Part shown: positions 32,464 through 57,637 of the stretch, piece by piece
How the letters are laid out: each line of letters opens with the position of its first letter
How positions within the stretch are numbered: position 1 is the stretch's first letter
Assembly (NCBI GenBank): GCA_002245135.1
Contig: NGBS01000006.1
Coordinates: forward strand, 62,001 to 119,637
Length of the DNA: 57,637 bases
Reading direction: 5' to 3'
Source of the DNA: Proteromonas lacertae
Lineage: Eukaryota
Notes under the pieces: model-generated
What the model saw: the letters and a program-made list of their open reading frames with translations, nothing else
Told to the model about the DNA's origin: nothing
Databases searched by the model: none
Program-made: the position numbers and the translations under genes

Positions 32464-35400
32464 TAGGCTTGGATTCTGTTTGCCAGAAACGATCCTTTTT
32501 TCTTTATTCTAGTTTTATACTTATGGAACAACTGTTTTATCAATTAAGATCTATCAGTGACTTAATCAAGTTACAAACCATCGATATGGAGAAAATCAAA
32601 AGTACTTTATTTGTTGTTTAAATCTTCTTCAGTATTATCAAACGAAATAAGAGCAATCGAGAAGAATGAGACTCTGTCTCTATCAAATGCTGAGATTTTA
32701 CATACAATATCAATAGAGCTTTACAATTTAGTTCGAAGTGAAATGCAAAAGTGTAATACACTGAATCGAATGAACTTTCTGATTGAATGTCGAATACTAT
32801 CCTGTGAAATGTTGAATACAAGCACAAAATTCAATTCAATGAAGAGTTTAAGAAATGAAGTGATTAAAGCTTACTGTCGAAGTGGTATATCAATATTGAG
32901 AATAAACAATGTCAATATACGAGGAATATCATGCTATGAGCGAGTATTGGAGATATTAGAAGAAAATGGTGGAATTGAGAGTATAATAACTGAAAAGAAT
33001 GAAGATATGGAAATATGTTTAGAATCAATATATGAGATGTTAGTCAGTTATATCGACTATATATCACGAGAAGAAAAGAATAATAAAGACAAACTGATAA
33101 ACAATATAAAACTGATAAATACAATAATTTCCTATTTAAATGATAATAAGAATGAAGAAATATACAATTTAATGTATTTATTAATATTGTTTATTATATA
33201 TAGATTTGGAATCTTAAAAGAATATCACAAAATGAATCGATATAATGATGTGATAGAAATAGGTGAGATATTTTATTCAATGATAAGTAATAATTGTGAT
33301 GATAATAAGAATATGAAAGTATTATTGCTATTAAGTGATTGTTATATAATGAACAAAGATAAGAAAGCATTAAACTGTTTATATTTGTGTGAATATGAAA
33401 AATATGGAATTGGTATATATTTGATGATAAAATATATATGTTTTACTAAAACTATATCATTTTTATATATTTTTATTTATATTTTCTTTAATTTATATTA
33501 TTTTTACAAAACCGATGAAATAGTGAAATTAATGGAAATGTTATTGAATCATAATAGTAAAGAATATTCATTATGTTTAGATGCTTGTCATATGATATTA
33601 AATAATAATATAATATCTAAAGACAATAATGAATTATATTGGTATAATGAATTAAAAGAACATTTTATTGATCATTGTGTTGATATTAATTTAGAAATAT
33701 TGGAAATACTTTTATCTAAAAATCCAATTCCATTAGATGTAATGGAAATATTGAATGAATTTAAATCAAGTATTTTTATATCTATATATTGTTTATTGAT
33801 TATTATTAAATAGATATTAATTCATTATCAGAATGTCAATTATCTTCAATATATAATCTATTATACAACACTTGTATATTGTATTATGAAAATAAACAAT
33901 ATAATGAATCAATAAATGTATATATATATATAAATAAATATATAAATATATAATAGTGGTGTAATGAGTTATTGCATTTATTGAATAATAATAATAACAG
34001 TTATATTCCCTCCATATTAAGAATGTTATCTGATTGTTACAATGAAACACATAATGTGAATGAAGCCATTAATAAAGCCAAAGAATGTATAAAGATAGAC
34101 AATACAATCAAAGTATAATGATTATTATATAATATAAATAGTCTCATTTCTTATTATATCATATATATATAAACAATAATATTGATAGAATAAATATAAA
34201 TGAAATGAAAGAATGTTTGAACAATTTAATGAATGCAAAAGATTATGATGTAAAATATTTATATTTATGTTGTGAAGAAGCCATTAAAAATAATAATATA
34301 TCAATCTCCATAGAATCCTTAGAAAGACTGTTATATTTACATAATAATATAAAGATTGGTCCAATACTTCGATGTTTAATAGAATTATATAATAATAACC
34401 ATATAAATGATGATAATAAGATATTACAATACTTTTCAAATGGATTAATGAAATTAGATAATATAAAAATAAAGAAAGAAGAAGAAGAAGAATATAATGA
34501 AAAGATAGAGAATGAGATAAAATCAATATTTGGAAATATGGAAGAGATTAATTGGATAGTTGGAATATTATGGAATAAAGGGTTATTATTGAAAGAAAAA
34601 GAGAATTATAAAATGAGTCATAAATACTTGAAATTATGTTATGAATATAGTTGTTATTTACCTCCTTCAAATATACTATTATCCTTAAAGAAATCTTCCT
34701 TATTATTATCCTCAAGCCTATTATTTGAGACAATAAATAAGAACGAAGAAAAGAAAGAAGAAGAAGAAGAAGAATATAAAGAAGTATTAAGAGAAATTGA
34801 AATATGTAAAAGATTATGTTTGAAATTAAAGAAACACTTTGAGAATAATAAAAATGATAATTTGATAGTATTTGGTAGAAAAGAGAATATTTGCACAATA
34901 AATGAGAATATGTTAATATTAAATACAATCGAAATGGAATGTAATTTATATTTACATAATAATGATAATATTGAAGAGTTATTCAATGAATATATTGAAT
35001 CAAGTACAATAATAATAAACCCAGAAATATTAGAATATATCTCTGAAATAGCTAAAAATACCAATTCCAAACCAATAATATATAAAGTATATAAATATAT
35101 ATTATTATACATATTATTATTATTATTATTATTATTATATAGAAATGCTTATCGTTATGTTTACAATATTTATATCAACAGAATCCAATAGATATAAAGT
35201 GTTTAAGTAGAATCTTAAGAAAATTATTATTACAAAGTGAAAACAAAGAAGAATTATACAAATGGCTTGAAGAAATCAATCAAATATGTGAAAATATAAA
35301 AGATGATGATTTTGATAATAGTGATTATGATTTTTATACGAGTATTAGTTGGAACAATGGAATAAAATATTTGAGATTAAAAGAGATAGAAAAGAGTGAG

Positions 35401-36014
35401 AAATTATTGAGTTTATCATTGAAATTCTTAGTAAAATCTAAAGGACTACAAGTATATATTGTAATGTATATATATCGTATAGGCTTACAGTAATGAAATG
35501 AATGAGATCTACAGTAGAGTTCTAAGTGAAAGAGAAGATTGTTGTTTACAACAACTGACTGAGATATGAATGATAATTAAAATCCTTATTATTGATATAT
35601 TGATATAGATATTGTTTTGTTTTTTGTTGTTATTTATTTCCATAAGAGAAAGAAGAGAGATTGTTGTTGATTAAAGAAAGAAGATGGATAAAATATTTCA
35701 GAATATCATATTTCAGTTGCAGATAAGAGTGAAATGTTCATTTTTGAGTTTTAGTTGTTTTTAATGAAATTCTTTCTTTGAATGAAACGACTATAATAAC
35801 GAAAAACTCAGTTTTGTTTTTTAGGATTTTTAGAATGAAATTCTCAATTCTGTGTATGATTTGTATGATATGATGAATAGTCCTTGTGCTGATCTGTAGT
35901 ATTGTTGGTGTTAGTGAAGCAGGCAGACACTTCTTCACGAATGGAAGCATTTCTGAAAGAAAGAATAGTTCAAGAAGATTAAGTGATGTCGAATTAACAA
36001 AAATATCATTTGGA
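32464..36014 (+). repeat. Left arm of a near-identical ~3.55 kb inverted duplication
   Basis: Reverse complement of 45385-48933. Paired ORF coordinates sum to 81397 or 81399, and the translations are identical except for isolated residues. Confidence 0.95.
32523..35569 (+). CDS. TEX11: TPR protein, ZIP4/SPO22/TEX11-like (meiotic crossover factor), copy 1, multi-exon
   Basis: ATG 32523, 31-nt intron 32602-32632; helical repeats; EINWIVGILWNKG and C-terminal SISWNNGIKYLRLKEIEKSEKLLSLSLKF resemble the TEX11/ZIP4 W..AWNxG repeats. Confidence 0.6.
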
Positions 36015-39000
36015 ACTAGTACTGATGGATATTATAATATAAAAGCCAGTTATTTATGTTCTTATGATAATATAGGTATAATCGACAGAACTAACTGTAA
36101 ATTTTGTAAATTTGTATATACATATAAAGGAACATATGATAGAACTAATCAAGAATATAAATTCAGTGATATTGTTCTTGATGAAGAAAAATCGTTATTC
36201 TATTTAGATTCTTCTATCGTAGCTGATTTACCGGAAAAAGAATACAAATACAGTGAACTGAAAACATCTACTGCAGCTGTACAATATGTGGAGAGTAAAA
36301 AATTACCTTTACCAGATTATGTTCATATACCCAGTGGAGAATTGATGTTGGAAGGAGACATTCGTGCACCATATTTTCAGACTTGTATATTATATCTAAA
36401 TTATGAATATAACAATTATAGTGAATAATGAAGATGTGATGTATAGAATAGAAAATAGTCATTACAAAACATATAATGCAAAAATGGATAAAATGTATGG
36501 TTATAGAAAAGATACAAGACAATATTATGAGAGATATGGTTTAGACAATAACATAACAATAATTGAAGTTCATGCAATGAACATGGAAAGAACAATATTA
36601 TATGTTGCAAATAAGAATGAGTATGTCGATATGATTGAGGAATTTAAAATAGTTCAAAATGGTGATGAAGTAGAATCTGAAAGTGGATCACCTTTATATT
36701 GTTATACAGAAGAATGTGATTATGTTAGTTCACTAGTTGATGGTTGGGTTCAGTTCTATATTCGTACAACTTTGTCATTTAAAACAATGCCAAAAGAAGA
36801 TGTAAGAAAAAACATTGATGCAGATATGAAAGCTATAAGAAAAGAGATTAGAAATTATTATAGAAGTAAAATTAGTAATACAAGAGAATTGAATAATTAT
36901 GAAAGAGATTTAGCTGATGATATTGGTTATTATTATGAAGAAAAAGGTGAAAGTAATGATATTTATAACGCATATATAATATATACAAATCAACTTACAA
37001 TATCAACGTATGAAATAGATGGTAGAGATAATGCAAATAATTCAATAAAAGGTATAATAAAAACCAAATATACAATTCCTGATAATAAGATTATAAATCC
37101 TCAGAATGATTATGATTCCACTTCTACTGCTGAATTAGCAGATTATGAGAGTTGTAAAACACCAACTCTTTTATCGTATATATGTATATTATATTAAATT
37201 TTAGTAATGTTGAATCAGTATGTGGAGTAGATGCACAAAGTACTACTAATAGTTATATATATTCACTTCCTATTACTATTCAAATATTGGAAAATAGTAT
37301 GATATTTACTGATGGTAGTAATACAAAAGAAGTAGAATTAAAAGAGAAGAGTATAAATATATGTTTATATAAATAGATGCAGATGATCTTAGAATGATAT
37401 TTGAGAAATTTTCAGTGAATACAATTCCAATACCATCTGAAAAATGTTATAATGGTAATATTATTGATATAAAACATAGTTTGGATATTAATATTACTTC
37501 AATAGATAATGAGTTATACTCATTTGTTAAAGCATTTGAAGATGGAAGTTATGGTTTTGGTATATCAACATCATCTATTTCTAGCAAAGATAAATATTCA
37601 GTATCTGAATCTAGGTATTTTAAATTCGATTATTATTCATTAACTACAGAGGATTTAAGCATTATTAATAAGGGCTATTCATATTTTACTTTCTACCATT
37701 CTCTTGTAGATGGTTTAGTTGATCTAATAGATTGTAAAAGTAATAATGATATTCAAATTCAAAAAGCATTAAATAATTACAATGAAAATGCATATTATAT
37801 TGATAGAATATTTAATAAGCAATTACCAGGAGGAAGTGATAATCCAAATGATGATGATGATAATAATGGTAATGATGATAATAATGATGATAAAACAACC
37901 ACAATAACAACCACAAAATTATTTATTCCTCCTCCAGTGTTACTATCATGTAAATTGAGTGATGAAGGATATATATTGATAATAGAATTTGATAAGAAAT
38001 GTTTAATGAATGGAATAGAAGTAAATAGTATATTTACTTGGAGTGATCCTCCATTTATAACATTTGATTCTTCAACAAGAATTGATATATTATTCTACAA
38101 ATGGATAAATGATGAAACACTATATGCTTATTATAATTCTACAACTGAAAGTATATCAGATTCTCCAAAAATGACACTTACAGAAGGATATATATATTCT
38201 GATTTAGATAGTATTTATTCAGCTAATGGTAGTTTAGCAATTACAACCAGACCTAAAGTTCCTAAAATATTGAATGGTGAATTTATTGATGAAAATATAA
38301 TTGAAATTAATTTTGACATAGAAATCAAAGAAGGAATTAGTATAAGTGGAAGAAAATGTAATGAAATTTTTAGTGATGAAACATTTGGTCCTTCATCAAT
38401 GTGTTATTTATCATCATCGTTGAAAACAATAACAATGAAAATGTCCAATCCAATTACAATATTTCCAAATAATAATTTGACATTAATTCCAAATATACTA
38501 AAAAGCAGTAAAAAGCATATGGAAGGAAGTAAAGGAACTATAAATCTGTCATTATCAGAATCATTTGAAACAGAATTAGAAGCAATAATCTCAATTCCTT
38601 CAATTGTTTCATATTGTTATGATTTTATAATGGATGGAAGTAGAAGTAGAGGTTCAAGTAGACCATTGATCTATCACTGGAGTTCTTCAAATGAAACATT
38701 AAATAATACAATATCCTCTTTAAATGAAGCAATGATAATAATTCCAAAATATTTATTAGAAGGTGGACATTATTATGATGTAAAATTAGAAATCGAAAGT
38801 TCATTTGATCATAGCAATGAATCAAGTAATATAACATTTTTTGTTGATTCAAATTTTGTATTAAATGTGAATATAGAAGGAGATAATAATCATTCAATAT
38901 ATACAAGTCAAAGTGAATATATTCGTGGAAGAGTCTCAGTATATCAATGTAACAAAAGTATTGAAATTCCATCAATTGAATATGATTGGTCATTAAAACA

Positions 39001-42000
39001 TGAGAGTAATAAATCAGAAATTGATATATCAAAATATAAAACCGATGATAAAACCAGATTATATTTTGATTCTCGTTCAATTCCATATGGTGATTATATT
39101 CTTACTTTGAATTCATCAGTTGATGAATTAGAATCCAATTATTCAATAGAACTGAATGTGGAATTACCTTCATTAGAAATTTTAACATCATATCCTGCTT
39201 ATTTAAGTCAAAATCAAAATGAAAGTATATATATTGATTTATCCAATATGAATGATCCAGATAATGTAGATATTGAGTTTACTTATACATGGAATTGTAT
39301 ATTTAATAAGAGTGAAGATGATTATGATGAATTAGTTTCAAATTCAAATCCAAATTCAGAATCAGATTTAGATACTAAAATATTTAAAATACCAAGTAAT
39401 AAATTAAAAATAGGGATTTATGAAATAACAGTTGAAATAAATGGAACAGAAACAGAAAGATCAGTTTCCAAAACATTTATAAGAGATATAAAAGAAATAC
39501 CATTTTCATTATATATTCAAAATCCAAAATCCAATTTAAGTATCTATAATCCTAAAGATATGTTTCAACTAATAAGTATAAGTTCAATCACTGAAAATGA
39601 TAAAATAGAATATAATTGGAGTTATTCAAATGATGAAAATATAAATCCATTTATAGGTAAAAGAGATTATAATAAAGTGAATATAAGATGTGAGAATTTA
39701 AATCCATTAATTACTCATAAAATCAAATTAGAAGTAACATATAAAGGTAATACAGTGGAAAGTTATTATGAATTTAGAATAAATGAAGGTCCATTATTTG
39801 GTTATTTATCTGTTTCAACATTGAACTATCAATTTGGTAATTATATTTCAATAACAACAAGTGGTTGGAAAGGAGAAGAACCATTTAGTTATAGATTTGG
39901 TGTGATAGTAAATAACTCAACTTATTATTTACAAGCAGTATATGGAAGAGGTAACAACTATTATGGAATATTACCATTAGGATCTAATCAATATAATTAT
40001 AGTTTAAATCCAATAGTGTTTATAAAAGATCGATATGGTGTAATATGTAATACAAGTTTTGATAAAGAAGGAAATATAATCGAAATTTATTCTCCACCAA
40101 TGCAATTAGATGATTTATCAAAAATAACTAGCGAATTAAAGAATGTAAGTGATGATTTGAAGAATGAACAATATTTCGATTATATATATTCAATGATAGA
40201 AGGAATTTCATCTCAGATGAAAGAAAGAAATTGTTCAGAAGATATAGGATGTCAAAATGGAGCTGAATGTTTAAATGGTCATTGTCAATGTTTGAATGGA
40301 TTTTATGGTGAATTATGTGAAAATCGAATGCCAATAGATGGTGGATTAAGTGTTAATTATAGTTATGGTGAATGTGATCATAAATGTGGATATGGTTTAA
40401 AACCGAAATGGAAAGAATGTAATAATCCTAAACCTGAATATGGTGGAAAAGAATGTAAAATTGAGATAGAATATGAAATATGTATTGGTGAAGATAAATT
40501 AGAATGTGAAAATGAAAATGGAGGTTGGAGTAAATGGAGTGAATTAAGTGAATGTAATGCTTATTGTGACAATTATAATGGTAAAACAGTATATGGAATT
40601 CAAAGTAGAAATCGAAACTGCTCAGATCCCAAACCATCCGGAAATGGAGCAAATTGTATTGGTGATGAGAATGAAATAATACAATGTTCCAAAGTATGTG
40701 AATCAGTGAATAAACTATGTCCAGGTGAATATATCTCAATGAATGGAACAAAAATTGGTAATGCTTGTAGTAATCATGGAAGTTGTATTATAAGTCGAGA
40801 AGGATGTAAAGAATATGAACCAAATTGTCATAGTAAATGTAAATGTCTTGAAGGTTATGCTGGTGAAAAATGTGAATATAGTAAAAATGAATATGAAATT
40901 CGATTAGATTTAAACAAAGATTTATTAGAAGAGATAGTTGAATCTTCATCTAAAAATGTATTGACAAATGATGCAAGTGAACAACATTCTTCAGCCTTAT
41001 TATCAGTGATAAATCCTCCAACTCAATTATTATCAGAAAATAAATCATTTTCAATGTCAATAATCAAATCTTCAATCAATTCATTAAAAGAGAATTCTTC
41101 ATTTGAAATATCTTATGAATCAATGACAAATTATATAAAAGCGAGTTGTTTATTATTGAATGATGAATGGAAAGATCGAGATGAAAGTAATTCTAGATTG
41201 CTTGAATCATCATCTTCATCTTCATTAATTTCAACAAAGATAGGAGAAGAATTACCTGAATTATTTAAGAATATAAGTAAGATGCATTTGAACCAAGAAA
41301 AATCAATAATTCCATTAGAAGTAATAACTGATGTAGTTAGTTTAAAGTCAATAAAATATGATGGAAGTATCAATTTAAATGATATGGGAGATTCTGTTAA
41401 TTTTCCTAATTCGATATTAAATGTTGATAGTGGAGAAGAAGCAAAAGAAATTTCAATAATTGATTGGTTAGATAATCCAAATAGTGATGATTTTGAATCA
41501 AGTAATAGAAGTGCAGGAGTAATCTCAATCTCAATAATGGGTAAAGAAGAAGAAACAGAAAAGAAATTTAATGATGTGGAAAATGTAATATATTTCATTC
41601 AAAGAATAAATGATGATAGTGATTTAAGACATATTCAATGTAGTTATTATAATAATAATGGTGAACTATCTTCGAAAGGATTAATAGTGATGGGAATAAG
41701 AAATGATGTAAATGGAAGTAAATTTGTGATATGTGGTACAACTCATTTAAGTGATTTTTCAACTCGAAAGAAATCTATATTACCCAAAATGAATTTAGTA
41801 AATCCAATCAGTGATGCGAAATTATTAGGTAATTATAATAAAGATAATATGATAGTTCCAATAATACTAGGAAGTGTAATATTAATCTGTATAATGTGTT
41901 GGCTTCTAACAAAATTCAAAGATTTAAATGAAATAACTAAATTAGAAGAATATAAGAGTGATTATTTTAAACTAACAGGAAGATTAGATGAAGAAGAAAC

Positions 42001-43396
42001 TGAATTTATAAAAAGTGAAAAGAACCACAAATCAATAATGGACAAATATTGGCATGTATTGAAAGATGAGCATAGCTGGTTATCTCCTCAATTAGGTCCA
42101 ACAGAGAATCTAATAGTAGTAAATCGAAATCAAAGAGTGTTATGTTTAACAGCTCAAATATTAACATCAACAGCAGTAAGTGCTTTATTCTTTGGAAATG
42201 ATGCTGAAAATATATCTCAATTAGCAATGACTTCGATAATATCTTCTTTATGTATGTTACCTGCTTCTTTATTAATTCCATATGTATATAAATATGCGAA
42301 TGGTTATATATCTAAGAAAGCATCAAGAAAGACAATTCCAACATGGAAATTGATATATTTGAAGTTGAAAAGATCAATAAAAGAAATGAAGAAAAAGAAA
42401 AATCTACCCAATAATGGTAATGAAAAATATCAATTGATATTGATAGTAGTTTCAATAATATTTGATATAGTGAGTGCTTTGTTCTTCATAATATTTGTAG
42501 CAATATTACCAGCTGGTTATATAACATTAGTTTTATTTTGTATTTATATAATATTTATAATTGAGACAATATCAATAATAATCGTATTAAATGAGAAGAA
42601 GAATAGATTATATATAATAATGATAACAGTGAATATAATATTATTATTATGCTTTTTGATATTATTTATATTGTATATCCTCTATATGAGTGATTCTTCA
42701 GCAGCATATTCGATATGGAAAAGTAGTTATAATGGATCATTAAAAGATTTAAATGAATATATCGAAAATAGTTTAGAATGTTGTGGTTATAATGAAATAG
42801 ATGATTATAATACAACTGATTGTACATCTCCCAAGATAATGGCATTAGGTGAACATACAGGATGTAAATCTTTATTAGTTGATAAATTCAACGAATATGC
42901 AGCACTTTGGTTAATATATTTTATGATAAGTATATCGATGATAGTTATTAAAATATATTTAATATCTAAATTCGTAAAAATAAAACGAAACAAAATCAAT
43001 CCAGATTCATTAACATTTGATAATATAACAACTGCAACTTGTAAGTCTGAGGAAATAATTTCAAGAGATTGTATTGTTGCAACTGAGAAATTAATATGTT
43101 TTTTGAGATATCGAATCTTTAAAGTTCAATACAAAAGAAAAGTTGAATATTTACACTGGAAAAGACAAAGAAGAATAAGAGCTGGATTGATATTATTAGC
43201 TAACTCATTTGTATTTTTATATATTCTAATAATGGTTTATATAAATTTATTATATGGAGTAAAATTTAGTAGTGATCAAGCTACAGAATGGATAATAAGT
43301 TCAACAATCTCAATGATAATCGATGTAATAATTCAAGAACCTTCAATGATACTATTATCAACAGTAGTAACAACTACATTAGGATCAATATTCTAG
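35835..43396 (+). CDS. Polycystin-1-like / adhesion-type receptor: signal peptide, variable N-domain, REJ, EGF, 2x TSP1, EGF, GPS, multi-TM region with nested tetraspanin-like module
   Basis: Splicing the 27-nt intron 35854-35880 gives signal peptide MKFSILFLVLICSIVGVSEA. REJ motifs MDGSRS..LIYHW and DPD..FTYTWNC; TSP1 GGWSKWSELSEC..RNRNCSDPKP; GPS CGTTHLSDF; PKD-like EHSWLS, RNQRVLCL and LYGVKF..EW. Confidence 0.85.
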
Positions 43397-43589: not shown

Positions 43590-45564
43590 TTAATTGATAG
43601 TTGATAATCTATATATCATTAAATTGTTTTCTATTAACGTTTCTATAAATGTATGATAATTTATTAATAACGAATATTCAACAACAAATATAAAGTTATT
43701 AACTAGTTTACCTTCTGCAATTGCTTTATTGTCATTTTTAAGCTCTTCTGTTGTTGCAAATACATAAACAGCATCTCCTACAGCCTTATATTGTTTTACT
43801 TCAGATATTGTTTCATACTCAACTAATGATATCTCTGAATTGGAATAAACATATATCATTCCACCACCAAATATCAATTTACTAGATACATAACTTCTAT
43901 CTCTTATTATGGTTATATTAGTTTCTTCCACTCCATCTCCAGAAAAACTAAAATCATAATTCAAACATTTGTCAGAAGGGATTGGAATTGTATTGAAGGT
44001 AGATTTTTCAATTATCATTCTTAGATCATTTATATCTATTAAAATAAACATAAATTTATACTCTTCTCTTTTAATTCTACTTCTTTTGAATAATCTGAAA
44101 TAGTAATTCTTAAACTCTTTTCCAATACTTCAATCCTGGTTGGAATACTATCCAACATTCTATTTATCTGCTGTACTGCATTTGATCCACATTTTAATTC
44201 AACATCTCTATTTATAAATATAATATTCAAATATACGATAAAAGTGTTGGTGTTTTACAATTCTCATAGTAATTAAATTCAATAGTTGAAGAAGGTTCAT
44301 AATCATTCTGAGGATTTATAATCTTATTCTCTGGTATTGTATATTTACATTTTAATAAATATTTTTCACTTCTACTCATAGAATTATATGTTAAAATTGA
44401 TAATATATTTGAATCTAATATGTAACTATGAAAATAATCACTATCATCGCCATCTTCATAATAATATCCAACATCATTAGTTAAATCTCTTTCATAATTA
44501 TTCAATTCTCTTGTATTACTAATTTTACTTCTATAATAATTTCTAATCTCTTTTCTAATAGCTTTCATATCTGAATCAATGTTTTTTCTTACATCTTCTT
44601 TTGCCATAGGTCTAAATGATCCTAATATGCTTGTATAGAAATCAGCCCAACCTTCTTCTTCATTATACATACCAACATAGTCACATTCTTCAGTATAACA
44701 ATATATTACACTACCTCTTGTATCTTTTATTTCATCACCATTTTGAATTTTTTCTATGACAGAGATACCATCGATGAATATATTTTCATCAGCTATATAA
44801 GTGATCGCTCTAAAATAATCCATTGCATTTACAACTATTACAGTAATATTATTATATATCCCTAATCCATCGAAATATTTCATAGATTCTTTACTATAAC
44901 CATACATTTTATCCATTTTTGCATTATATGTTTTGTAATGACTGTTTTCTATTCTATACATCACATCTTCATTGCTTACTATAATTATATATATATATAT
45001 ATATATACGACTGTAAGAGTCTCTATATTTATTATCACTATCATCAAAAAAATATGACATATATGAATCTATTTCAACTTTTGTTATATATGGTGATTTT
45101 TTACTCTCCACATATTGTACAGCTTCTGCACATCCTTTCAATTCACTGTATTTGTATTCTTTCTCTGGTAAATCGCAGTAGATAGATCCATCTAAATAGA
45201 ATATAGATTTTTCTTCATCTACAACATAATCACTAAAACTGTAGGTTTTAGTTGTTTTATCATATGTTCCTTTATATGTATATACAAATTTACAGAATTT
45301 ACAGTTATCTCTATCAATAATGGCCAAATTTTCATAAGAACATAAATAACCAACTTTTGCATTATTTCCAAACATAGATATAGCTCCAAACGATATTTTT
45401 GTTAATTCGACATCACTTAATCTTCTTGAAATATTCTTTCTTTCAGAAATGCTTCCATTCGTGAAGAAGTGTCTGCCTGCTTCACTAACACCAACAATAC
45501 TACAGATCAGCACAAGGACTATTCATCATATCATACAAATCATACACAGAATTGAGAATTTCAT
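43590..45564 (-). CDS. Truncated, probably secreted paralogue of the receptor N-terminal domain (no REJ/GPS/TM body)
   Basis: Same first exon and signal peptide, same intron positions and patchy identity to 35835-37450; stops at 43590 with no membrane anchor. Confidence 0.75.
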
Positions 45565-48500
45565 TCTAAAAATCCTAAAAAACAAAACTGAGTTTTTCGT
45601 TATTATAGTCGTTTCATTCAAAGAAAGAATTTCATTAAAAACAACTAAAACTCAAAAATGAACATTTCACTCTTATCTGCAACTGAAATATGATATTCTG
45701 AAATATTTTATCCATCTTCTTTCTTTAATCAACAACAATCTCTCTTCTTTCTCTTATGGAAATAAATAACAACAAAAAACAAAACAATATCTATATCAAT
45801 ATATCAATAATAAGGATTTTAATTATCATTCATATCTCAGTCAGTTGTTGTAAACAACAATCTTCTCTTTCACTTAGAACTCTACTGTAGATCTCATTCA
45901 TTTCATTACTGTAAGCCTATACGATATATATACATTACAATATATACTTGTAGTCCTTTAGATTTTACTAAGAATTTCAATGATAAACTCAATAATTTCT
46001 CACTCTTTTCTATCTCTTTTAATCTCAAATATTTTATTCCATTGTTCCAACTAATACTCGTATAAAAATCATAATCACTATTATCAAAATCATCATCTTT
46101 TATATTTTCACATATTTGATTGATTTCTTCAAGCCATTTGTATAATTCTTCTTTGTTTTCACTTTGTAATAATAATTTTCTTAAGATTCTACTTAAACAC
46201 TTTATATCTATTGGATTCTGTTGATATAAATATTGTAAACATAACGATAAGCATTTCTATATAATAATAATAATAATAATAATAATATGTATAATAATAT
46301 ATATTTATATACTTTATATATTATTGGTTTGGAATTGGTATTTTTAGCTATTTCAGAGATATATTCTAATATTTCTGGGTTTATTATTATTGTACTTGAT
46401 TCAATATATTCATTGAATAACTCTTCAATATTATCATTATTATGTAAATATAAATTACATTCCATTTCGATTGTATTTAATATTAACATATTCTCATTTA
46501 TTGTGCAAATATTCTCTTTTCTACCAAATACTATCAAATTATCATTTTTATTATTCTCAAAGTGTTTCTTTAATTTCAAACATAATCTTTTACATATTTC
46601 AATTTCTCTTAATACTTCTTTATATTCTTCTTCTTCTTCTTCTTTCTTTTCTTCGTTCTTATTTATTGTCTCAAATAATAGGCTTGAGGATAATAATAAG
46701 GAAGATTTCTTTAAGGATAATAGTATATTTGAAGGAGGTAAATAACAACTATATTCATAACATAATTTCAAGTATTTATGACTCATTTTATAATTCTCTT
46801 TTTCTTTCAATAATAACCCTTTATTCCATAATATTCCAACTATCCAATTAATCTCTTCCATATTTCCAAATATTGATTTTATCTCATTCTCTATTTTTTC
46901 ATTATATTCTTCTTCTTCTTCTTTCTTTATTTTTATATTATCTAATTTCATTAATCCATTTGAAAAGTATTGTAATATCTTATTATCATCATTTATATGG
47001 TTATTATTATATAATTCTATTAAACATCGAAGTATTGGACCAATCTTTATATTATTATGTAAATATAACAGTCTTTCTAAGGATTCTATGGAGATTGATA
47101 TATTATTATTTTTAATGGCTTCTTCACAACATAAATATAAATATTTTACATCATAATCTTTTGCATTCATTAAATTGTTCAAACATTCTTTCATTTCATT
47201 TATATTTATTCTATCAATATTATTGTTTATATATATATGATATAATAAGAAATGAGACTATTTATATTATATAATAATCATTATACTTTGATTGTATTGT
47301 CTATCTTTATACATTCTTTGGCTTTATTAATGGCTTCATTCACATTATGTGTTTCATTGTAACAATCAGATAACATTCTTAATATGGAGGGAATATAACT
47401 GTTATTATTATTATTCAATAAATGCAATAACTCATTACACCACTATTATATATTTATATATTTATTTATATATATATACATTTATTGATTCATTATATTG
47501 TTTATTTTCATAATACAATATACAAGTGTTGTATAATAGATTATATATTGAAGATAATTGACATTCTGATAATGAATTAATATCTATTTAATAATAATCA
47601 ATAAACAATATATAGATATAAAAATACTTGATTTAAATTCATTCAATATTTCCATTACATCTAATGGAATTGGATTTTTAGATAAAAGTATTTCCAATAT
47701 TTCTAAATTAATATCAACACAATGATCAATAAAATGTTCTTTTAATTCATTATACCAATATAATTCATTATTGTCTTTAGATATTATATTATTATTTAAT
47801 ATCATATGACAAGCATCTAAACATAATGAATATTCTTTACTATTATGATTCAATAACATTTCCATTAATTTCACTATTTCATCGGTTTTGTAAAAATAAT
47901 ATAAATTAAAGAAAATATAAATAAAAATATATAAAAATGATATAGTTTTAGTAAAACATATATATTTTATCATCAAATATATACCAATTCCATATTTTTC
48001 ATATTCACACAAATATAAACAGTTTAATGCTTTCTTATCTTTGTTCATTATATAACAATCACTTAATAGCAATAATACTTTCATATTCTTATTATCATCA
48101 CAATTATTACTTATCATTGAATAAAATATCTCACCTATTTCTATCACATCATTATATAGATTCATTTTGTGATATTCTTTTAAGATTCCAAATCTATATA
48201 TAATAAACAATATTAATAAATACATTAAATTGTATATTTCTTCATTCTTATTATCATTTAAATAGGAAATTATTGTATTTATCAGTTTTATATTGTTTAT
48301 CAGTTTGTCTTTATTATTCTTTTCTTCTCGTGATATATAGTCGATATAACTGACTAACATCTCATATATTGATTCTAAACATATTTCCATATCTTCATTC
48401 TTTTCAGTTATTATACTCTCAATTCCACCATTTTCTTCTAATATCTCCAATACTCGCTCATAGCATGATATTCCTCGTATATTGACATTGTTTATTCTCA

Positions 48501-48933
48501 ATATTGATATACCACTTCGACAGTAAGCTTTAATCACTTCATTTCTTAAACTCTTCATTGAATTGAATTTTGTGCTTGTATTCAACATTTCACAGGATAG
48601 TATTCGACATTCAATCAGAAAGTTCATTCGATTCAGTGTATTACACTTTTGCATTTCACTTCGAACTAAATTGTAAAGCTCTATTGATATTGTATGTAAA
48701 ATCTCAGCATTTGATAGAGACAGAGTCTCATTCTTCTCGATTGCTCTTATTTCGTTTGATAATACTGAAGAAGATTTAAACAACAAATAAAGTACTTTTG
48801 ATTTTCTCCATATCGATGGTTTGTAACTTGATTAAGTCACTGATAGATCTTAATTGATAAAACAGTTGTTCCATAAGTATAAAACTAGAATAAAGAAAAA
48901 AGGATCGTTTCTGGCAAACAGAATCCAAGCCTA
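45385..48933 (-). repeat. Right arm of the inverted duplication
   Basis: Reverse complement of 32464-36014. Confidence 0.95.
45830..48874 (-). CDS. TEX11: ZIP4/SPO22/TEX11-like TPR protein, copy 2
   Basis: Mirror of 32523-35569; one visible amino-acid change (KMNRYN to KMNLYN). Confidence 0.6.
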
Positions 48934-49008
48934 AATACCTTAAAAACGTGAATATATTCATCATCAATACATAACATAATAATATATATTAAGGGCTACA
49001 GACCCAAA

Positions 49009-49055
49009 ATGGCTTGACGCTAGACCACGAGGCTTGACGCTGGACCCGAGGCTAA
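49009..49055 (+). repeat. Subterminal GC-rich tandem repeat GGCTTGACGCTRGACC(A)CGA, ~2.3 copies
   Basis: ggcttgacgctagaccacga ggcttgacgctggacccga ggcta. Confidence 0.85.
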
Positions 49056-49144
49056 AATTCGTATATTCGTTTCATTTTTCTTATTTTTCATTTTATTCAA
49101 TAACCGTTCATTTGTACAACGGTTTTAACGGTCGTTATGAATCC

Positions 49145-49176
49145 GTTACATGTCAGTTACATAACTGACGTGTAAC
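49145..49176. repeat. Inverted repeat/hairpin, 15-bp arms with 1 mismatch
   Basis: GTTACATGTCAGTTA-CA-TAACTGACGTGTAAC. Confidence 0.85.
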
Positions 49177-49272
49177 TGACGGTGTAACTGCCGTCCGTTG
49201 TAAACATTTGTTCAATTATGTTATAGAGACTGATATAAACCTTAGGAAGGCCATATACACCACCTAAGACTC

Positions 49273-49304
49273 GTTTTCACTTTCCCTTGTTTTCACTTTC
49301 CCTT
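49273..49304 (+). repeat. 16-nt direct repeat x2 (GTTTTCACTTTCCCTT)
   Basis: Directly visible. Confidence 0.9.
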
Positions 49305-49339
49305 TTCTTTTACTCATTTAGTTTTTGAAATGCGGATTT

Positions 49340-49458
49340 CATAATCGATTTTCCTTTCCCTTTCTTTTTTTCACTTATTTACCTAGAGAAAAGTGATCGA
49401 CTTCACTTTCCCTAAGTAAGGAAGTGAAAAAAAGAAAGGGTAAGAAGAATCGGTTATG
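49340..49458. repeat. ~120-nt imperfect palindrome with a perfect 19-bp stem
   Basis: 49358-49376 CCCTTTCTTTTTTTCACTT pairs with 49422-49440; outer CATAATCGATT/AATCGGTTATG; imperfect inner stem. Confidence 0.9.
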
Positions 49459-49579
49459 GATTTTTTATGTTATTTTAAATAAACCCTTAAAAACACACAG
49501 TCTTCTTTTTATTTTAATTAATCTCTGTATTAGTATTTAAAATATATAATTATTTAATCATAATTAGATAAATTCATAT

Positions 49580-49992
49580 TTACTTACTTCTTTTTTTGAT
49601 ATCTGCATCCATTTTCACTCTAGCTGCTAAAGCATCACATAATAAAGATAGTAATCCATTAACTGCGTAATCTAATTTGTTATCAATAAATAATTGATTA
49701 TTCTCAATTAATTCTTTCTTAAATCTATTACCATCTTTTCTAATATTATCTAAATATGTGATAATTTCCAATCTTTTTTTCGTTGCATACTGATTACTAT
49801 AATAATGCTTAACTTTGTCTAGTATAGCTTTTAACTTTGCTAGATTAGCTATACTCTCTTCTAAATAATATAAGAAATGAATTTCTGTATATCCATTTAA
49901 TGCTAATTCTCTAATGCTATTAAAAACTTTGATCCAAAATGGTATTTCTTCTTGAACCATTGTTATATCTCTCTGATAAACAAAATGACGCA
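49580..49992 (-). CDS. Hypothetical helical protein of the Polinton-like element
   Basis: Clean ORF of ~137 aa from the ATG at 49992, divergent from PolB; no family recognised. Confidence 0.6.
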
Positions 49993-50045
49993 TATTAATA
50001 TAGTAAATAATCAAAAAAACAATAAATTAAAAGTAAAGTTAATTA

Positions 50046-50107
50046 TTTCTTTGATAATCAAAGAAAAAATTTTAACTATATTATTACAACTCCTTGATTA
50101 TCAAGGA
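50046..50107. promoter_or_regulatory. Two related palindromes (core CTT(T)GAT-W-ATC(A)AAG) in a divergent promoter
   Basis: TTTCTTTGAT-A-ATCAAAGAAA (50046-50066) and TCCTTGAT-T-ATCAAGGA (50091-50107). The regulatory role is inferred. Confidence 0.55.
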
Positions 50108-50189
50108 ATTTCAATTAGCAAATCATATTAATACATTTGGAGTTATTTTATTGGGTATATTTATATCTTTCTCGTTTTTATAGGTTCTA

Positions 50190-53100
50190 ATGTATCCCAG
50201 CTATCCTCCTTGGTTTAATCCGTGGTATTACCAGTCTCCAAGTACTTCTATGCCTATTCAAGGCAATAGTCAAGCAAATCAGATTCCAATGTTGCCACAA
50301 AGTTATTTTAATCCCTGGATGAACCCTTATTTTACTCCAGCTATCCCACCACCACCACCATCCTATTACTATCCTCCACCATATTATGTAGGATCATTAA
50401 ATCAACATCCACAACAACCTCAGCAGCAGCAGCAACAACAACAACAACAATCAAACACTACTAGAAGTACTAATGGAACTAGTTTCATAACACCAAGAAG
50501 AAGAACAACATCTTCAATTGTAATTGATCAACCACCTCCTCCACCTCCAAAAATACAGCGATTAGCAGAAATCCCAGATGATTTATTGCCAGATACACCT
50601 CCTCCTGAAGATCCACCAACACTTTCACCAATTAATGATGGACCAATTCCTGAAATACATCCTCAATCAACTACAGATGTTGAAAGAAGAAGGCAGCTAC
50701 AGGAAGAAATGATTGCTCTGGATGTTGTTGATAATCATCCAGAGCAGTTGAAAACAATGTCACATCCTGAAAGAGTAAGTTTGTTACAACTTGTAGAGAG
50801 AAGCAGTAGAGACTACGAACGTACCTACGAGAAGATTATAAATGAAGAAGATGGAAAGAAACCTGAGGATTTGTTTACCCAAATCTGCAATGCATCAAGT
50901 GATTTTATGGTTACCATACGTAACTACATAAATGAGAAGAAATTTTCTTATATAAAAGTGTATTTCAGATTCAGAGTAGGTTATATAGGATCCGATGAAC
51001 CAGCCAATGCACAAGTAAGTTGTTACAAAACATTCGAAACAGCGCCAGAAATTATAACTTCTCAAGAGTTAGGTACAATTGGTTCAAAGTTAAACAATGC
51101 CATGATTCGAGATTTAGGTTCAATTTTCAACACTGAAAGATCTGAACTAAAGTTCAGATATATTAAGAAGGTAGAGATGATACTGATGAAAAGTTCAATG
51201 GCTGCTGGATCCTCTACAGAAGATGACAACATAAAGTTACCAGCAAGTCTCAACAATAGAAAGTGCGTTATTAATTTAGTAAGATATAGTGAAGAATGTA
51301 AGAATATGTGCTTTTTATTTAGTGTGGCAGCTGGTTTACACTATATAGAGTTCAAAGACCACCGTAACAGAGCAATGAAATATAAACAGTATGTAGACTT
51401 AATGGATGTAAGTAGTTTAAGGTTTCCAGTAGATGCAATTAATGATAGTGACAGAATTGATGAGTTTGAACAGCTGAATCATATTACTATCAATATATTT
51501 ACAATAGACCAGAATGAACCAATACCTTTATACGTTACCAACATAGATAAAAGAAAACACTGGCCTCATGTGAACCTATTGATATATAAAGATCATTATA
51601 TGGTAATAACAAAGTTAGAAGCCTTCCTATCACCTTCTGGTAAAAGGTGTCATAATTATTATACCAGATGCCAGTATTGTTTCTGTACTTTATCAACAGC
51701 TGATATGATAATTCAACATCAGAAAGAGAACTGTCAATTACAAAAAGGAATCATTCGTCAATTTCCACCTCCAGATACCTTCATCAAGTTTCATAATTTC
51801 AAATACCAACAAATGATTCCTGTAGTATTATACTGGGATACAGAAGTTATACAAGTACCAATAGATCCTTCTGAAGTAATACCTGGAGCCAAAGGAGCGT
51901 TTAAAAAACATATTCTCAGCAGTTGGTGCATTCACTTAAGTTCCAGGTACCCTGAAATCATCAGCGAAGAAACATTCTTCGGAAAACTGGAATTGCAGCA
52001 AGATCCACAAGATTTGGAGATGCAACTAGTAAAGAAGTTTGTTGAGATTCAAGATTATGTATTGAAGAAGTATGAAGATTATAAAAGTGGTGAATTGAAA
52101 CCATTAGATGAAAGCACTTATATTCCAGCTCATAAAAATATCGATAAATGTATGTGGTGCAATACACCCTTCAATGAAAACGACAGAAATAGAAGGCGAA
52201 CAAGACACCATGACCATTTTACTGGTAAGTATATTGCAACCTTATGTTCAAACTGTAATTGGCATTGTAGTTTACAACATATGCCTATACCATGTTTGGC
52301 ACACAACAGTAAAAACTATGACAATAACTTTATAATACGCGGATTATCAAAGTTGGATAAAGAAATGGAAGCAAAATGGTACAATGATAATAATATTCCT
52401 ATTCCAAATGATGATGATGATGATGATGAAGATAATGAAATTATACAATTACCAATACCTGAACCTGAACCTGAACCAATTGCTGATAGATTAGCTGAAT
52501 ACAATAGAGGTATTGAAGAAGAAAAGAAACAAGAACAAGAAGCAAAAACAGTTGATAATGATGAAGAAGATGCAGAAACAGAAGAAGATACTGATTCTGA
52601 TTTGCCATTACCAGAAATACCACCAAATGCAATTGAAATAGTTGATGAGAATGATCCAGCAAATGAAGAAGCATTTAATGAGTTGTATTACATGTTACAT
52701 AGTAGAGATCATTACATATCACCAAGAACAGCAGAAGATATTGGATTAGAAGAAGAGATGGGAAATATTATTGTTTCACAACCTAATTCAACAACAACTG
52801 AACAACAACAACAACAACAACCAACACCAAGAAAGAAGAAATATCATTCAAAACTATCTGTATTGTTAAAAACTGATAATAAGTTTTTACTTATCAAGTT
52901 CATGAAGTTACACTTTATAGATAGTTGTCAATTTATGCCAGCATCATTAGATTCATTAGTAAAGTCATTGAAAGTCGAAGCTGATGCACATGCTAATCAT
53001 AAAGTACTCTTTAAACCAGTTTATCAATATGTAACACAAACAAAAGAGATAAATGATTGTTTAAAAGAGAGAAACTGGACAGTGGATGATTTTATAGCTA

Positions 53101-55077
53101 AGTGGGGTTTACAGAAAGGTCATTTCCCCTACGAATACGTAGATAGTATTCAAAAGTTATACCTTACTGATAAATTACCTAGAAAAGAAGATTTTAAGTC
53201 TCAATTAAAACAGAATGAAGGTATATCTGATTATGATTATGAATCATCTCAAGCTCTCTGGACTCTATTGAAATGTAAAAACTTGATGGATTACAATATG
53301 TTCTATTTAGCAATTGATGTTCTTACATTATCTAGTGTATTTGATCACTTTAGGAATGTTGTATTTAGAACGTTTACATTAGATCCATGCTGGCATGTAT
53401 CATGTCCTGGATTAGCCTGGAGTATATTCCTTAAAAAATCCAAAGTGGATATAGAACTAATATCAGATCAAGACAAGTATGACTTTATGAGAAAAGGTCT
53501 TATTGGTGGAATTTCAATGATTGGATCTACGAGAAAAGCAGAAGCTAAAAATCATTACATGGATCCTCCATACTTTTCAGATCATACTTCTCATCCACCA
53601 AAACAAGAAACATATATTATGTATGTAGATTATAATTCTCTATATCCTTCTACAATGGCATCAATGAAATTACCCTATAAAGACTTTCAATGGGAACCAA
53701 ATCCTCAATTAATTTATGATAATGTTATAACAAAATTAAAACCTTATGAGGATTTAAAAAGATCATTTATGGTAGAAGATCAGAAGCTGTGGAAGGATCC
53801 AGAGAGCAGAGGTTATATATTAGAAGTTGATATAGAACCTCCAGATAATACAAATGGCAAGTTCTCAGAGTATCCTTTGTTTCCTGAACGAAAGATAATA
53901 TTATATGAAGATTTGTCACCAACACAGAAGCAATGGGCCAGAGAATTAGGATTAGTAGCTGTCAACAAAAAGTCTGGCAAAGAAGTATTGAAGAATAATA
54001 CAGCAAGAATAATATGTGATTTATCCAACAAGTATCATTATGTTGTTCATTATCAATATCTAAACTATGCTGTGAAGTTAGGATATAAAGTAACCAAAGT
54101 ATGGAGAGTAATTAGTTTTTGTGAAACAGATTATGCGTATGAATTTGTTATGCAATGCCATCTATTAAGAAAAGATGCAAAGAAGTTCCATCGAGATGCA
54201 GAAGCTGATACGTTTAAACTAATCCTGAATAGTGCATATGGTAAGACATGTGAGAATACTGAGAATAGATGTAGAAGTAGACTAGTTAATAATGAGGACC
54301 AATTCCTCAAATGTGTTAGCAATCCATACTTTACTGGTTTTGTTTCAATTGATGGTTGTGACTTGAGAGTGTGTAAGTTTAAAAAATACAAGTGTGCAAT
54401 AGATAAGCCAAGCTATATTGGAATGTCCATTCTTTGCCAATCAAAGTATCTTATGGCAAAGTTTTGGTATGGACAATTATATCAAAAGTATAAACAAGGA
54501 TTGCGTTTATTAATGACAGATACAGACTCTTTTATCTTTATGGTATGGACAGATGATATATACAAAGATATTGCTAATGATTTAAGTCTACAAGGTTGCA
54601 TGGATACTGGTAATATTAATTGTGATTATCTTAAAGAGAGAGGTATTCGTTATCAGAACTATCAAAGAACAGGTGAACTGAATTTACTTAAAATGGAAGA
54701 GAACAAAAGTGATCAATTATATACAATAACAAAATTCTGTGGATTGAAAGCAAAGATGTATGCTTATGAGAAGCAAAGAGTGGATGGATTTACGCATTTA
54801 AAGGTGTCTGATAGCAGAGCAAAAGGCGTAACTAAAGGTTTCAGAATAAAGACTTGTGACTATGATTACTACAAGAATATCTTAGAAAGTAAAGAACTAA
54901 GTAAAGTTTATGTTAATCAATATAGTTTCAGAAGTGCAAAACAAGTAGTATACACAGTTAAACAACCAAAGTTAGCTTTTACAATCTTTGATATAAAGAG
55001 ATTTTACTTGAATGTTTTAACTTCAATTCCTTATACTATAAGTCGCCCACCACCACCAATGTTTACAGATATTGTCG

Positions 55078-55113
<36 letters not shown>

Positions 55114-55145
55114 TTATTAATATTGATGAAAATAGCATTAATTAG
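50190..55145 (+). CDS. Protein-primed family B DNA polymerase (pPolB) with putative terminal protein, vOTU-like and HNH/Endonuclease VII domains
   Basis: ExoI WDTE, ExoII HNSKNYD, ExoIII YLAIDV; Pol A YVDYNSLYP, B KLILNSAYGK, C TDTDS, KAKMY, AKGV; HNH CMWC..HHDHFTGKYIATLCSNCN. Confidence 0.95.
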
Positions 55146-55204
55146 AATAAAATGGATATATTCAATATATTTGTGTATGCTTTTACTTTTGTGTTTTTCT
55201 TCTT

Positions 55205-56496
55205 ATGCTTACTAATTCTTATTATAATCAGCCTTACACTAAGTCAAATACAAATGCAACTCAAGAACTACCACCAGGATATAAGTTTGTTGATCAAACA
55301 AACCAATCAAACCTTACGAGCAATTTTAACAATGCACCACCGCCATTACAGAATTTTACAAGAGCGGATCCGTATGATGATGATGAAATGTCAAGACAAA
55401 TCGAGCAGTATAGAGAATATTTAGATAGACTTTATGAACAGTATTATTATTTAAGTGAAAAACAGTTTATTAAATTAACTCAAGAAGCTATTGGAAAGAA
55501 TGAAGTTCCACCTCCTTATGATGTTGTTAGAGAGTATCTTAGACGTAAACCAGGTCGTCAAGTAGTTGATTTCAAGTACAATAAAGATTTACCTTTTGCA
55601 ACTGTTAAGAAACCAGGCTATTTTCAATTAGATATTGTCTTTTTCTTACCTCAATTATATCATTTATATATAATAGAAATAAACTCTAGAAAAGTATGGG
55701 TGATACCAATGTCAAGCAATAATGCTGTAGATATAATGAGAGCTTTTAATGCATGGTATTTTAAAACAAATGAAGATGGTTCTGAAATAGTATCAAAAAG
55801 ACGTGTTGTAAGTATTTTAGCTGATTTAGAAAGTGGTTTTAGTGTAGTTAAAGAGTTCTGTGATAAGGAAGGAATAACATTCTATCAAAAGCACCTAATG
55901 AACATAGAATAGAAGCTATATTAGATAAATCGGTAAGTGTAATAAAGAAACTATTATATAAACACTTGATAGACTTAGGAATAGAAGCACCAGAGTTTCA
56001 AGCTAATATTGATCGACGGGACAGAAGAGAAATCATCGATCAAAAGTGGTTAGCACGTTTCAATGATATTGTACAACAAGCTGTGAATGACTATAACAAC
56101 AAACCATTATCAAGTTTGAGAGATTTTACACCTAATGAAGTATACAATAGTCCTAAACTACAAAACAGAATGTTAATGGAATCAATCAAATACAATTTTA
56201 ATAATGAACAAAGATTAAAAGTTCATTTTCAAGTAGGAGATTTAGTTCGATTTAAAGAGAGAAGAAGACCTATGGATAAAAACACTTATTGGTCAGATAA
56301 GATATATCGTATTATAAAGAAGAACAGATACTCTTATATGTTAGGAGATACAAATGGAAATTGGGATGAAGATGTGTCTCGATATAGGTTTAAGCACTAT
56401 GAACTTCAATTAGTAGCTAGAAGGGATCCTGAAACAAATTTCAGACATATTTTGGAAAGACCTCGAATCAGAAAAGGTGATAATACAATTGTGTAA
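55205..56496 (+). CDS. Retroviral-like (rve) integrase with C-terminal SH3-like domain, split by a -1 frameshift at ~55890
   Basis: FQLDIVF..YIIEINSRKVWV, ILADLESGF; in the -1 frame APNEHRIEAILDKSVSVIKK continues into ORF 55966 (YNNKPLSSLRDFTPNE; FQVGDLVRF..WSDKIYRI). Confidence 0.88.
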
Positions 56497-56589
56497 TTAA
56501 TTAATTAATTTTAAGCTGTTCTAACAACCAAGCAACATCATAGCTATTAACTTGTTTTCTGGGTGGAGCAACAATTGTCTTTGCATTAA

Positions 56590-56936
56590 TTACTTTTTGA
56601 TTCTTCTCTGTTTTTGTTTGACCTCTTGCAAGATACAACACATTGTGTAATAAAACTCCTTATCAATTGTAGATACAATAATTGGTTTGTATCTTGATGG
56701 AATGAAGATCTCGTAAAATCCATGGTTGGGAATAGGTGAAATTGTAGGACAACCAACGCTATATCTATCTTCTACAGCCTGGCCATAATTTATTACCAAA
56801 GGTGCTTTGATATTTGATGATGAGAACCATATTATATCTTTAGCTTCTTTTGGAATATATATCTTCCATCTACACTCGTCATATACTTCTCGAATCCAAA
56901 AATAGTTTGGTCACCATGGCTAAAACAATACTTCAT
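56590..56936 (-). CDS. Hypothetical element protein (~115 aa), needs one added T near 56900
   Basis: The frame of ORF 56590-56799 stays open upstream to ~56910 (WIREVYDECRWKIYIPKE). The ATG at 56936 joins it if the T5 run is T6. Confidence 0.4.
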
Positions 56937-56960
56937 GAATTCTTAAAAAATGTAACGAAA

Positions 56961-57294
56961 ATGCCAAAGATCGCGAAACGAATAAATTCGTATTTCTTTT
57001 ATTTTTCGTTTATATAGGTATCAAATAACAATGGAAATGATGTTAAAAGAAAATGCAGAAGCAGCATTTGACATGTGGTTCGAATTATGCAGCACATATA
57101 TCAATCACAAAGATGATGGTAGTTTGGAGTACCAAAACGCATTAAAGAAAGCAGGGAATATAATAGTAACTTGTAAGAAGCTCAATGAAGCATACAATTT
57201 AGGTTTGGATGAACAAGTGCTTGAATTGATGAATCGTTTAGAGAGTAAGAGATTAGCTACACAGTGTCTTAAAGAAGAGTTAGAAAAGCAATAG
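56961..57294 (+). CDS. Hypothetical element protein with a 28-nt intron
   Basis: ATG 56961 MPKIAKRINS joins ORF 57031 in frame after removing GTATTT..TATAG (56990-57017). Confidence 0.6.
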
Positions 57295-57371
57295 AAGAAG
57301 TAATGCCTATACTAAATATTTTTAAAACCTCATAAAGATTAGATAATAATAATAATTAATTAATTTTTTTT

Positions 57372-57637
57372 TTATACTATTCCAAACTCTTTTTTCATCA
57401 TTGCTACTCTTTTCTCACCTACCACTGTATTAAATCTGTAGCCTGCTTGAATGTTCTTTTTCTATTTAATATATCGTTCAAAAAATTGATTGCGAAAAAA
57501 CCACAATTACTTGTATTACTATTCTGGTTTTGAACTGCATTGATTTTTAACTGATATGGTTTTTCATGAAATTTCTTGAACTTTTTCAAACATTCTTTGA
57601 AATATTCTAGTTTCTGAGGATCCTCACCGAAAGAATC
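57372..57637 (-). CDS. Adenain/Ulp1-type cysteine protease (Polinton maturation protease), C-terminal part; not in the ORF track
   Basis: Manual translation from the window end: DSFGEDPQK..QNQNSNTSNCGFFAINFL (catalytic D, oxyanion Q and C). Stop at 57419, or at 57372 if a 1-nt deletion is corrected. Confidence 0.85.

Follow-up and report, generated by a model that had tools for sequence, protein, structure and literature searches.

Polintons are elements of 13–25 kb that encode a protein-primed family B DNA polymerase (pPolB), an rve integrase, a protease, an ATPase and two capsid proteins, and that are bounded by terminal inverted repeats (TIRs) of 100–1500 bp and a 5–8-bp duplication (Jeong et al., 10.1101/2023.08.22.554363). 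Polymerases of this kind with an HNH domain (pPolB2) are known from oomycete and nematode Polintons (10.1101/2023.08.22.554363). For Proteromonas lacertae, 285 capsid matches in one cluster have been reported, next to ten Blastocystis rows without a count (Bellas 2023, PMC10120064), and a separate Proteromonas capsid cluster also appears in 10.64898/2026.07.28.741278. The Blastocystis MELD virus and its rumen relatives join PolB and integrase and have a long PolB branch (Starrett et al. 2021, PMC8502044). We analyzed a window of 57,637 nucleotides from P. lacertae contig NGBS01000006.1 (assembly GCA_002245135.1, positions 62,001 to 119,637, forward strand), whose last 8.7 kb (48934–57637), up to the contig end, are foreign to the flanking host genes. 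We read this stretch as the left part of a Polinton-type virus that has integrated there and whose capsid genes would lie past the contig end (probability about 0.85). The class is already known, since Polinton-type elements have been described across protists in hundreds of genomes, Opalinata included; the element described here belongs to a divergent lineage within it.

The reading as a Polinton-type virus is based on the presence of PolB, integrase and protease with their catalytic motifs, on the sharp host junction and on the repeat-rich left end. The preliminary description of this DNA had proposed a Polinton/Maverick-like virus, and this class is borne out by a Polinton-type pPolB with a predicted terminal-protein domain and a vOTU domain, an rve-type DDE integrase (frameshifted) and the 3' end of an adenain-like (adenain-clan) protease, all beside intron-rich nuclear genes. 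The element has a guanine plus cytosine (GC) content of 31.2% versus 26.4% in the host part, and contains 0.11 intron-like motifs (GTA...TAG) per kb versus 1.51 per kb in host DNA 1–32463, shuffles of which gave 13–19 such motifs each (about 0.5 per kb). An Rfam search returned 0 matches. The main parts of the element are:

48934–49579, no strand: left non-coding end, likely the left TIR region (from the stop of host-arm identity, repeats, fold and CpG content)
50190–55145, plus strand: pPolB of 1651 amino acids (aa) (unbroken open reading frame, Pfam, alignment, model)
PolB, N-terminal part: Pro/Gln-rich N-terminus; predicted terminal-protein domain at aa 207–337; vOTU Cys374/His469
PolB, exonuclease: Exo I at 549; HNH/EndoVII insert at 654–690; Exo II at 705; acidic insert at about 726–885; Exo III at 1039
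PolB, polymerase motifs: Pol A at 1145, Pol B at 1343, Pol C at 1442, KxY at 1522
55205–56496, plus strand: rve-type integrase split over two frames, with a D-D-D acidic triad and one base missing near the homopolymer at 55888–55891 (from relatives)
57375–57637, minus strand: 3' end of the gene for a cysteine protease of clan CE (adenain/Ulp1-like), catalytic Gln and Cys motifs included (from relatives)

Polymerase, integrase and protease

The PolB gene is, as had been noted before, a full open reading frame (ORF) of 1651 aa without a break, and its product matches Pfam DNA_pol_B_2 with 63 bits (cut-off 25.8). Of 4175 candidates searched with residues 340–1630, nine proteins reached E 1e-10 or better; the closest, P0001, is 48% identical over 99% of the query, and the other eight are 28–34% identical. 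Alignment with HNH-bearing pPolBs covers the whole catalytic length, including the vOTU Cys and His, Exo I–III, the HNH insert, Pol A–C and KxY. As in the pPolB2 clade, the HNH insert is located in the exonuclease domain. Pfam Endonuclease_7 matches aa 650–691 below its cut-off (E 0.0074), and in a profile search against the PDB EndoVII structures ranked top (E 0.007), with the Cys/His motifs aligned. Two traits set this PolB and P0001 apart from the other rows of the alignment: the N-terminus is rich in Pro and Gln, and Exo II and Exo III are separated by an acidic insert of about 150 aa. The acidic insert (aa about 726–885, window about 52365–52845) is predicted to be disordered and has a short conserved core also found in P0001.

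A structural model of aa 203–1402 reached a mean predicted local distance difference test (pLDDT) score of 67.8, with values below 50 in the acidic insert. Model residues 5–135 match the Y-family little-finger fold (Z 9.4–9.5, root-mean-square deviation 2.6–3.0, about 100 residues aligned), and residues 341–1200 match phi29 polymerase (Z 12.0). In polymerases of this group, the Y-family little-finger fold is the fused terminal protein, and the same architecture has been described for them (Krupovic et al., 10.1101/2024.03.18.585575). The model thus predicts a fused terminal-protein domain for the PolB described here. The vOTU domain is assigned by its aligned Cys and His motifs and had no fold match among the 50 structure matches listed. 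Foldseek found nothing in the PDB at E 0.001, whereas the second structure comparison did give the fold matches above. Against a viral library, Foldseek gave 38 matches at E 0.001, led by densovirus-labelled, adintovirus and MELD-virus PolBs; plasmids are outside this library.

Since DNA_pol_B_2 covers plasmid polymerases too and cytoplasmic plasmids also have vOTU domains, an integrated linear plasmid of mitochondrial or cytoplasmic type was considered. However, the sequences closest to this PolB are pPolBs of the HNH type, whose loci show integrase, ATPase or capsid matches, and the element contains an rve integrase and a clan-CE protease, neither of which is known as a linear-plasmid gene. 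We regard this origin as extremely improbable. In a quick tree of 15 unlabelled rows, made without the near-copies P0004, P0007 and L002 and the fragments L009–L011, the window's PolB and P0001 are set off from the remaining 13 by a branch of 1.9 changes per site (Shimodaira-Hasegawa-like approximate likelihood ratio support 100). On this alignment, the tree shows the divergence of the two rather than membership in a group.

The integrase is encoded by two ORFs in different frames (55205–55912 and 55867–56496), each corresponding to half of one protein. The halves are 59% (231 columns) and 55% (230 columns) identical to P0010 and also match P0011 and P0016. The window's own N-terminal half matches Pfam rve only weakly (E 0.11); among the relatives scanned, 7 of 11 match it at E 0.015 or better, one of them above the curated cut-off. 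We therefore name the protein an integrase because of the rve matches of its relatives and the acidic triad. P0011, used as query against 1.84 billion representatives, gave 74 matches. The triad was counted in the 58 of 76 rows with at least 290 aa: the first site is D in 56 of 58 and the second in 58 of 58, and the third is D in 41, E in 11 and N in 6. A fold model built from a two-row alignment had a pLDDT of 34.6 and was not used. A 90-aa ORF at 55152–55424 was rejected as a shadow, as it overlaps the integrase in another frame and the relatives start at the same Met as the frame at 55205. A weak match of P0010 to host positions 9584–9832, seen with filters off, was treated as compositional. 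The P0016 cluster contains 19 integrase variants at 90% identity on short contigs, several of them broken at one site into pieces of 165 and 257 aa; it is a multi-copy family with some decayed copies.

The window includes the last 92 or so codons of the protease, the remainder being cut off by the contig end. The frame is one base short at a homopolymer run near 57431–57434, and the tail goes on in another frame. The 72-aa piece alone had no Pfam protease match and 0 sequence matches in the PDB. Used as query, this tail found two proteins among nine candidates that are 68–74% identical to it, P0015 (301 aa) and P0014 (1354 aa). Both match Peptidase_C48, above its cut-off, and the adenovirus endoprotease C5, where P0015 alone exceeds the cut-off; PPR matches to P0015 were rejected as repeat artefacts. 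P0014 ends in the protease domain, its first 1170 aa having no recognized family, and a second relative of 1354 aa is present among the cluster members. P0014 and P0015 are 68% identical over 303 columns. The aligned part reaches some 100 residues beyond the protease domain on its upstream side, so that two clusters conserve the extension. Directly ahead of the protease, an F-G-x-G motif is conserved in both. In the N-terminal part of P0014 there are four hydrophobic stretches, along with several Gly-Gly or Gly-x-Gly sites that are candidates for cleavage; an Atlas search with residues 230–1170 of P0014 gave no usable match. In its closest relatives, the protease forms the C-terminus of a longer protein, so the window's protease too is probably made as a precursor. 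A targeted literature search did not find a protease fusion described in polintons; if the precursor reading is true, it would mean polyprotein-style processing in a small DNA virus group.

Among the loci found by PolB searches, L001, L003, L004, L005, L007 and L008 have matches to rve integrase, A32 ATPase or double-jelly-roll proteins. One of them, an unrelated polinton-like virus contig (L001:4651-17078), has the same order of PolB followed by integrase, together with an ATPase and a capsid-sized ORF. Of two metagenome scans, one was without a match and the other gave nine distant PolBs at 28–35%. The ten nearest integrase and protease clusters have all their listed members on Logan contigs shorter than 10 kb. 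The locus described here unites polymerase, integrase and protease, so far found on short contigs, in a single element and places them on a host chromosome.

Several observations weigh against a virus of Polinton type. Up to the contig end at 57637, we saw neither a capsid, penton or ATPase gene nor a second TIR or target duplication. A longer contig of a close relative was not found among viral contigs searched by PolB, integrase and protease, in metagenomes or in prokaryote genomes, so that these scans gave no link of this lineage of PolB, integrase and protease to capsid genes. The fusion of the protease to a large protein occurs in relatives only, whose tie to the PolB is inferred, and the host/element junction is seen in a single contig. 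The missing capsid gene in 8.7 kb would also fit a capsid-less self-synthesizing transposon, a pPolB and rve module that kept a protease, and capsid-less pPolB-DDE modules have been described (10.64898/2026.10.13.758929). However, proteases of the maturation type are part of the morphogenesis module, 8.7 kb amounts to about half a Polinton's length or less, and the PolB relatives on longer loci mostly come with ATPase or capsid matches. We consider such a transposon unlikely and retain the reading as a virus.

Left end, host junction and inverted duplication

The element lies directly behind an inverted duplication of host DNA. The parts of the host DNA relevant here are:

31806–32365, plus strand: putative Ubc13-like E2 gene, 148 aa, with introns of 28, 28, 26 and 31 nt (from splicing to a clean frame)
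32464–36018, plus strand: host DNA, left arm of the inverted duplication (self-comparison)
45381–48933, minus strand: host DNA, right arm of the inverted duplication, ending at the element edge (self-comparison)

In a self-comparison of the window, the identity with the duplicated host arm stops at 48933, and beyond the left arm the sequence passes leftwards into the Ubc13-like gene from its 3' end, without viral sequence. The 25 nt at the junction have no match in either host arm or elsewhere in the window, and the terminus of the element lies between 48934 and about 48959. The start at 48959 given previously is an 11-mer with three further copies in the host part (four in the window), so that this position does not fix the terminus. 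The 11-mer is similar to the ends of adenovirus genomes, but its four occurrences speak against using it as a terminus. Near the same position, a 12-bp palindrome is located at 48948–48961, which may be a target site or an element end.

In the left end there are direct repeats of 16 and 17 nt and two hairpins, one of 18 bp at 49142–49179 and an imperfect one of 52 bp at 49340–49458. The DNA fold of the left 650 nt or so has a z score of -5.67, with 0 of 100 shuffles as good, and the observed/expected ratio of CpG is 1.37 in the left end versus 0.47 in the host. The left 650 nt are non-coding, CpG-rich and strongly folded with repeats and hairpins, as would be expected of a terminal repeat region. 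A second copy was not found within the window. Both matches obtained when a 16-nt motif of this end was scanned in viral contigs were dismissed as chance.

The outer arms of the host duplication are 3.55 kb long, and differ at three positions (99.9% identity). The position of the element at a contig end, directly behind such an arm, together with the 25 unmatched junction nt, would be expected if free or multi-copy virus sequence had been joined to the host contig by misassembly, the inverted duplication perhaps being part of the same error. However, the inner repeat is only about 80% identical over 1.4 kb and has a spacer of 6.5 kb, unlike a fold-back read chimera, and integration is the normal state of rve-bearing elements; a misassembly is thus improbable. 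The junction may also record that the virus was involved in duplicating a host gene. In C. elegans, Polintons have been reported to drive rearrangements of host genes (10.1101/2024.01.15.575659).

The inverted duplication is nested (32464–37448 / 43964–48933): inner arms of about 1.4 kb at about 80% identity enclose a 2007-aa ORF. It contains a whole duplicated host gene (32566–35191), for which Pfam gave no name beyond a weak Armadillo-like match. The enclosed ORF (37373–43396) is intron-free and encodes a membrane protein with TSP1, EGF-like and weak tetraspanin matches.

The remaining host part encodes proteins with Pfam matches to RRM, kinase, chromodomain SNF2 helicase, phosphatase, MFS transporters and EGF proteins. 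Two tandem MFS transporter paralogues (26951–30568) are 72–75% identical in matched stretches. An EGF/teneurin-repeat gene with Pfam EGF matches lies at 12628–16637; its motifs presumably recall stramenopile mastigoneme (Sig1-like) proteins. The host uses standard stops and, at 26.4% GC, has introns of 26–31 nt, as seen in the Ubc13-like gene, which agrees with the micro-intron protist proposed earlier. By composition, these features probably point to a stramenopile of the Opalinata type. In published genomes, the GC content is 27.0% in Proteromonas lacertae, 21–23% in tortoise Blastocystis and 39–55% in human Blastocystis, the introns of which are almost all 30 nt long (PMC12129017).

Frame breaks and small reading frames

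Besides the three enzymes, the element contains three smaller reading frames:

49580–49993, minus strand: 137-aa ORF of no known family, codon use like PolB
56501–56936, minus strand: putative gene of about 145 codons, frame changes near 56900 and 56650 (codon use)
57031–57294, plus strand: 87-aa ORF of no known family, coding-like codon use

The 137-aa ORF is probably a real gene because its codon use is like that of PolB; its best Atlas match (0.81) is a lead only. For all three frames, nothing was found at E 0.01 or better in Pfam, PHROGs and the fetched relative loci, in line with the earlier statement that the small ORFs have no recognizable homologue.

Four frame breaks occur in the last 1.8 kb, one each in integrase and protease and two in the ORF at 56501–56936, and PolB has none. 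The earlier claim of three core genes stands for their presence; intact frames are not found for integrase and protease, each being one base short relative to full-length relatives. PolB is intact as had been described, but with integrase and protease frameshifted and a third ORF changing frame twice, the young age derived from it is plausible at most. All four breaks are one-base losses at short homopolymer runs. They fall within the 1571 coding nt on the right, and the 6050 on the left are free of them (P 0.0018, post hoc). Frame breaks in endogenous viruses are often assembly artefacts (Bellas 2023, PMC10120064). Since the breaks are all in the last 1.8 kb and none is in PolB, consensus or assembly error near the contig end is somewhat the likelier cause than decay.

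The case for error is weakened by several points. Homologues prove two of the four breaks, and with those two P is about 0.04; the other two, in 56501–56936, go in the same direction and are deduced from codon use. The host arms differ at three sites in 3.55 kb, none of which is a one-base loss, and relatives have split integrases, divided at a different site into 165 + 257 aa. These split copies indicate that real decay likely occurs in the family. A Polinton-type virus truly broken at this place, as a non-autonomous relic or as a mosaic whose left part is intact and whose right part has decayed, would account for four breaks within 1.8 kb in a contig whose host part looks accurate. The split integrases of relatives on short-read contigs also speak for decay. 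However, the left 6050 coding nt have neither a premature stop nor a break, all four breaks are one-base homopolymer losses and the catalytic motifs are kept. We consider a decayed copy possible, and error the better explanation.

As host introns are very short and the element may use host processing, the breaks could also be micro-introns of host style or programmed frameshifts. Yet compared with P0011 and P0015 the window is one base short, not longer; the close relatives keep the frame, and their split copies break elsewhere. In addition, a canonical slippery heptamer was not found at the integrase break. Micro-introns or recoding are therefore quite improbable.

Proposed mechanism and comparison with known systems

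The element most likely works like a Polinton. From what is known of the family (Krupovic 2024, Jeong 2023), its linear genome would be copied from the ends by PolB, primed by the polymerase's own terminal-protein domain, which the vOTU domain would then cut free. The rve integrase would link the terminal repeats to chromosomal DNA, duplicating a short target, and the protease would mature the virion. Sequence and model establish the enzymes; that they are active, that virions form and that a capsid module exists we infer. A further-reaching proposal is a distinct polintovirus lineage of gut protists in which the protease is the C-terminal domain of a self-processing core or membrane precursor of about 1350 aa, combined with an enlarged polymerase and a D-D-D integrase, the present copy being intact and recent and its insertion having made the adjacent host inverted duplication. 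This proposal as a whole is doubtful. In the openly accessible papers and supplements searched on Blastocystis and Proteromonas viruses and on polintons, no description of the replication genes of this element was found.

Compared with Polintons and pPolB2 elements, the locus shares the terminal-protein-like and vOTU domains, the HNH insert, an rve integrase, an adenain-clan protease, nuclear insertion and a long non-coding end. It differs in its long PolB branch, with 26–31% identity to the other, unlabelled alignment rows, in the acidic insert of about 150 aa, in a D-D-D integrase without a chromodomain match and in a protease that, in relatives, ends a long protein. With the endogenous polinton-like viruses of P. 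lacertae (Bellas 2023) it has in common the integrated state, frameshifts, which the authors often trace to assembly, and a fitting host type, with 26.4% GC in the host part next to the published 27.0%; that group, however, is defined by its capsid, and the window contains no capsid gene. Like the MELD virus, it is an element of a gut protist with PolB and integrase, and the PolB labelled 'MELD virus sp.' was Foldseek rank 7 at 24% identity. Host GC content and intron sizes differ from those of human Blastocystis; MELD was compared by description. Mavirus-type virophages likewise combine pPolB, rve integrase and protease with integration in a bigyran stramenopile. However, in Mavirus the exonuclease of pPolB is reduced to a remnant and a helicase is encoded (10.1101/2024.03.18.585575), whereas the polymerase described here has the Exo I–III motifs.

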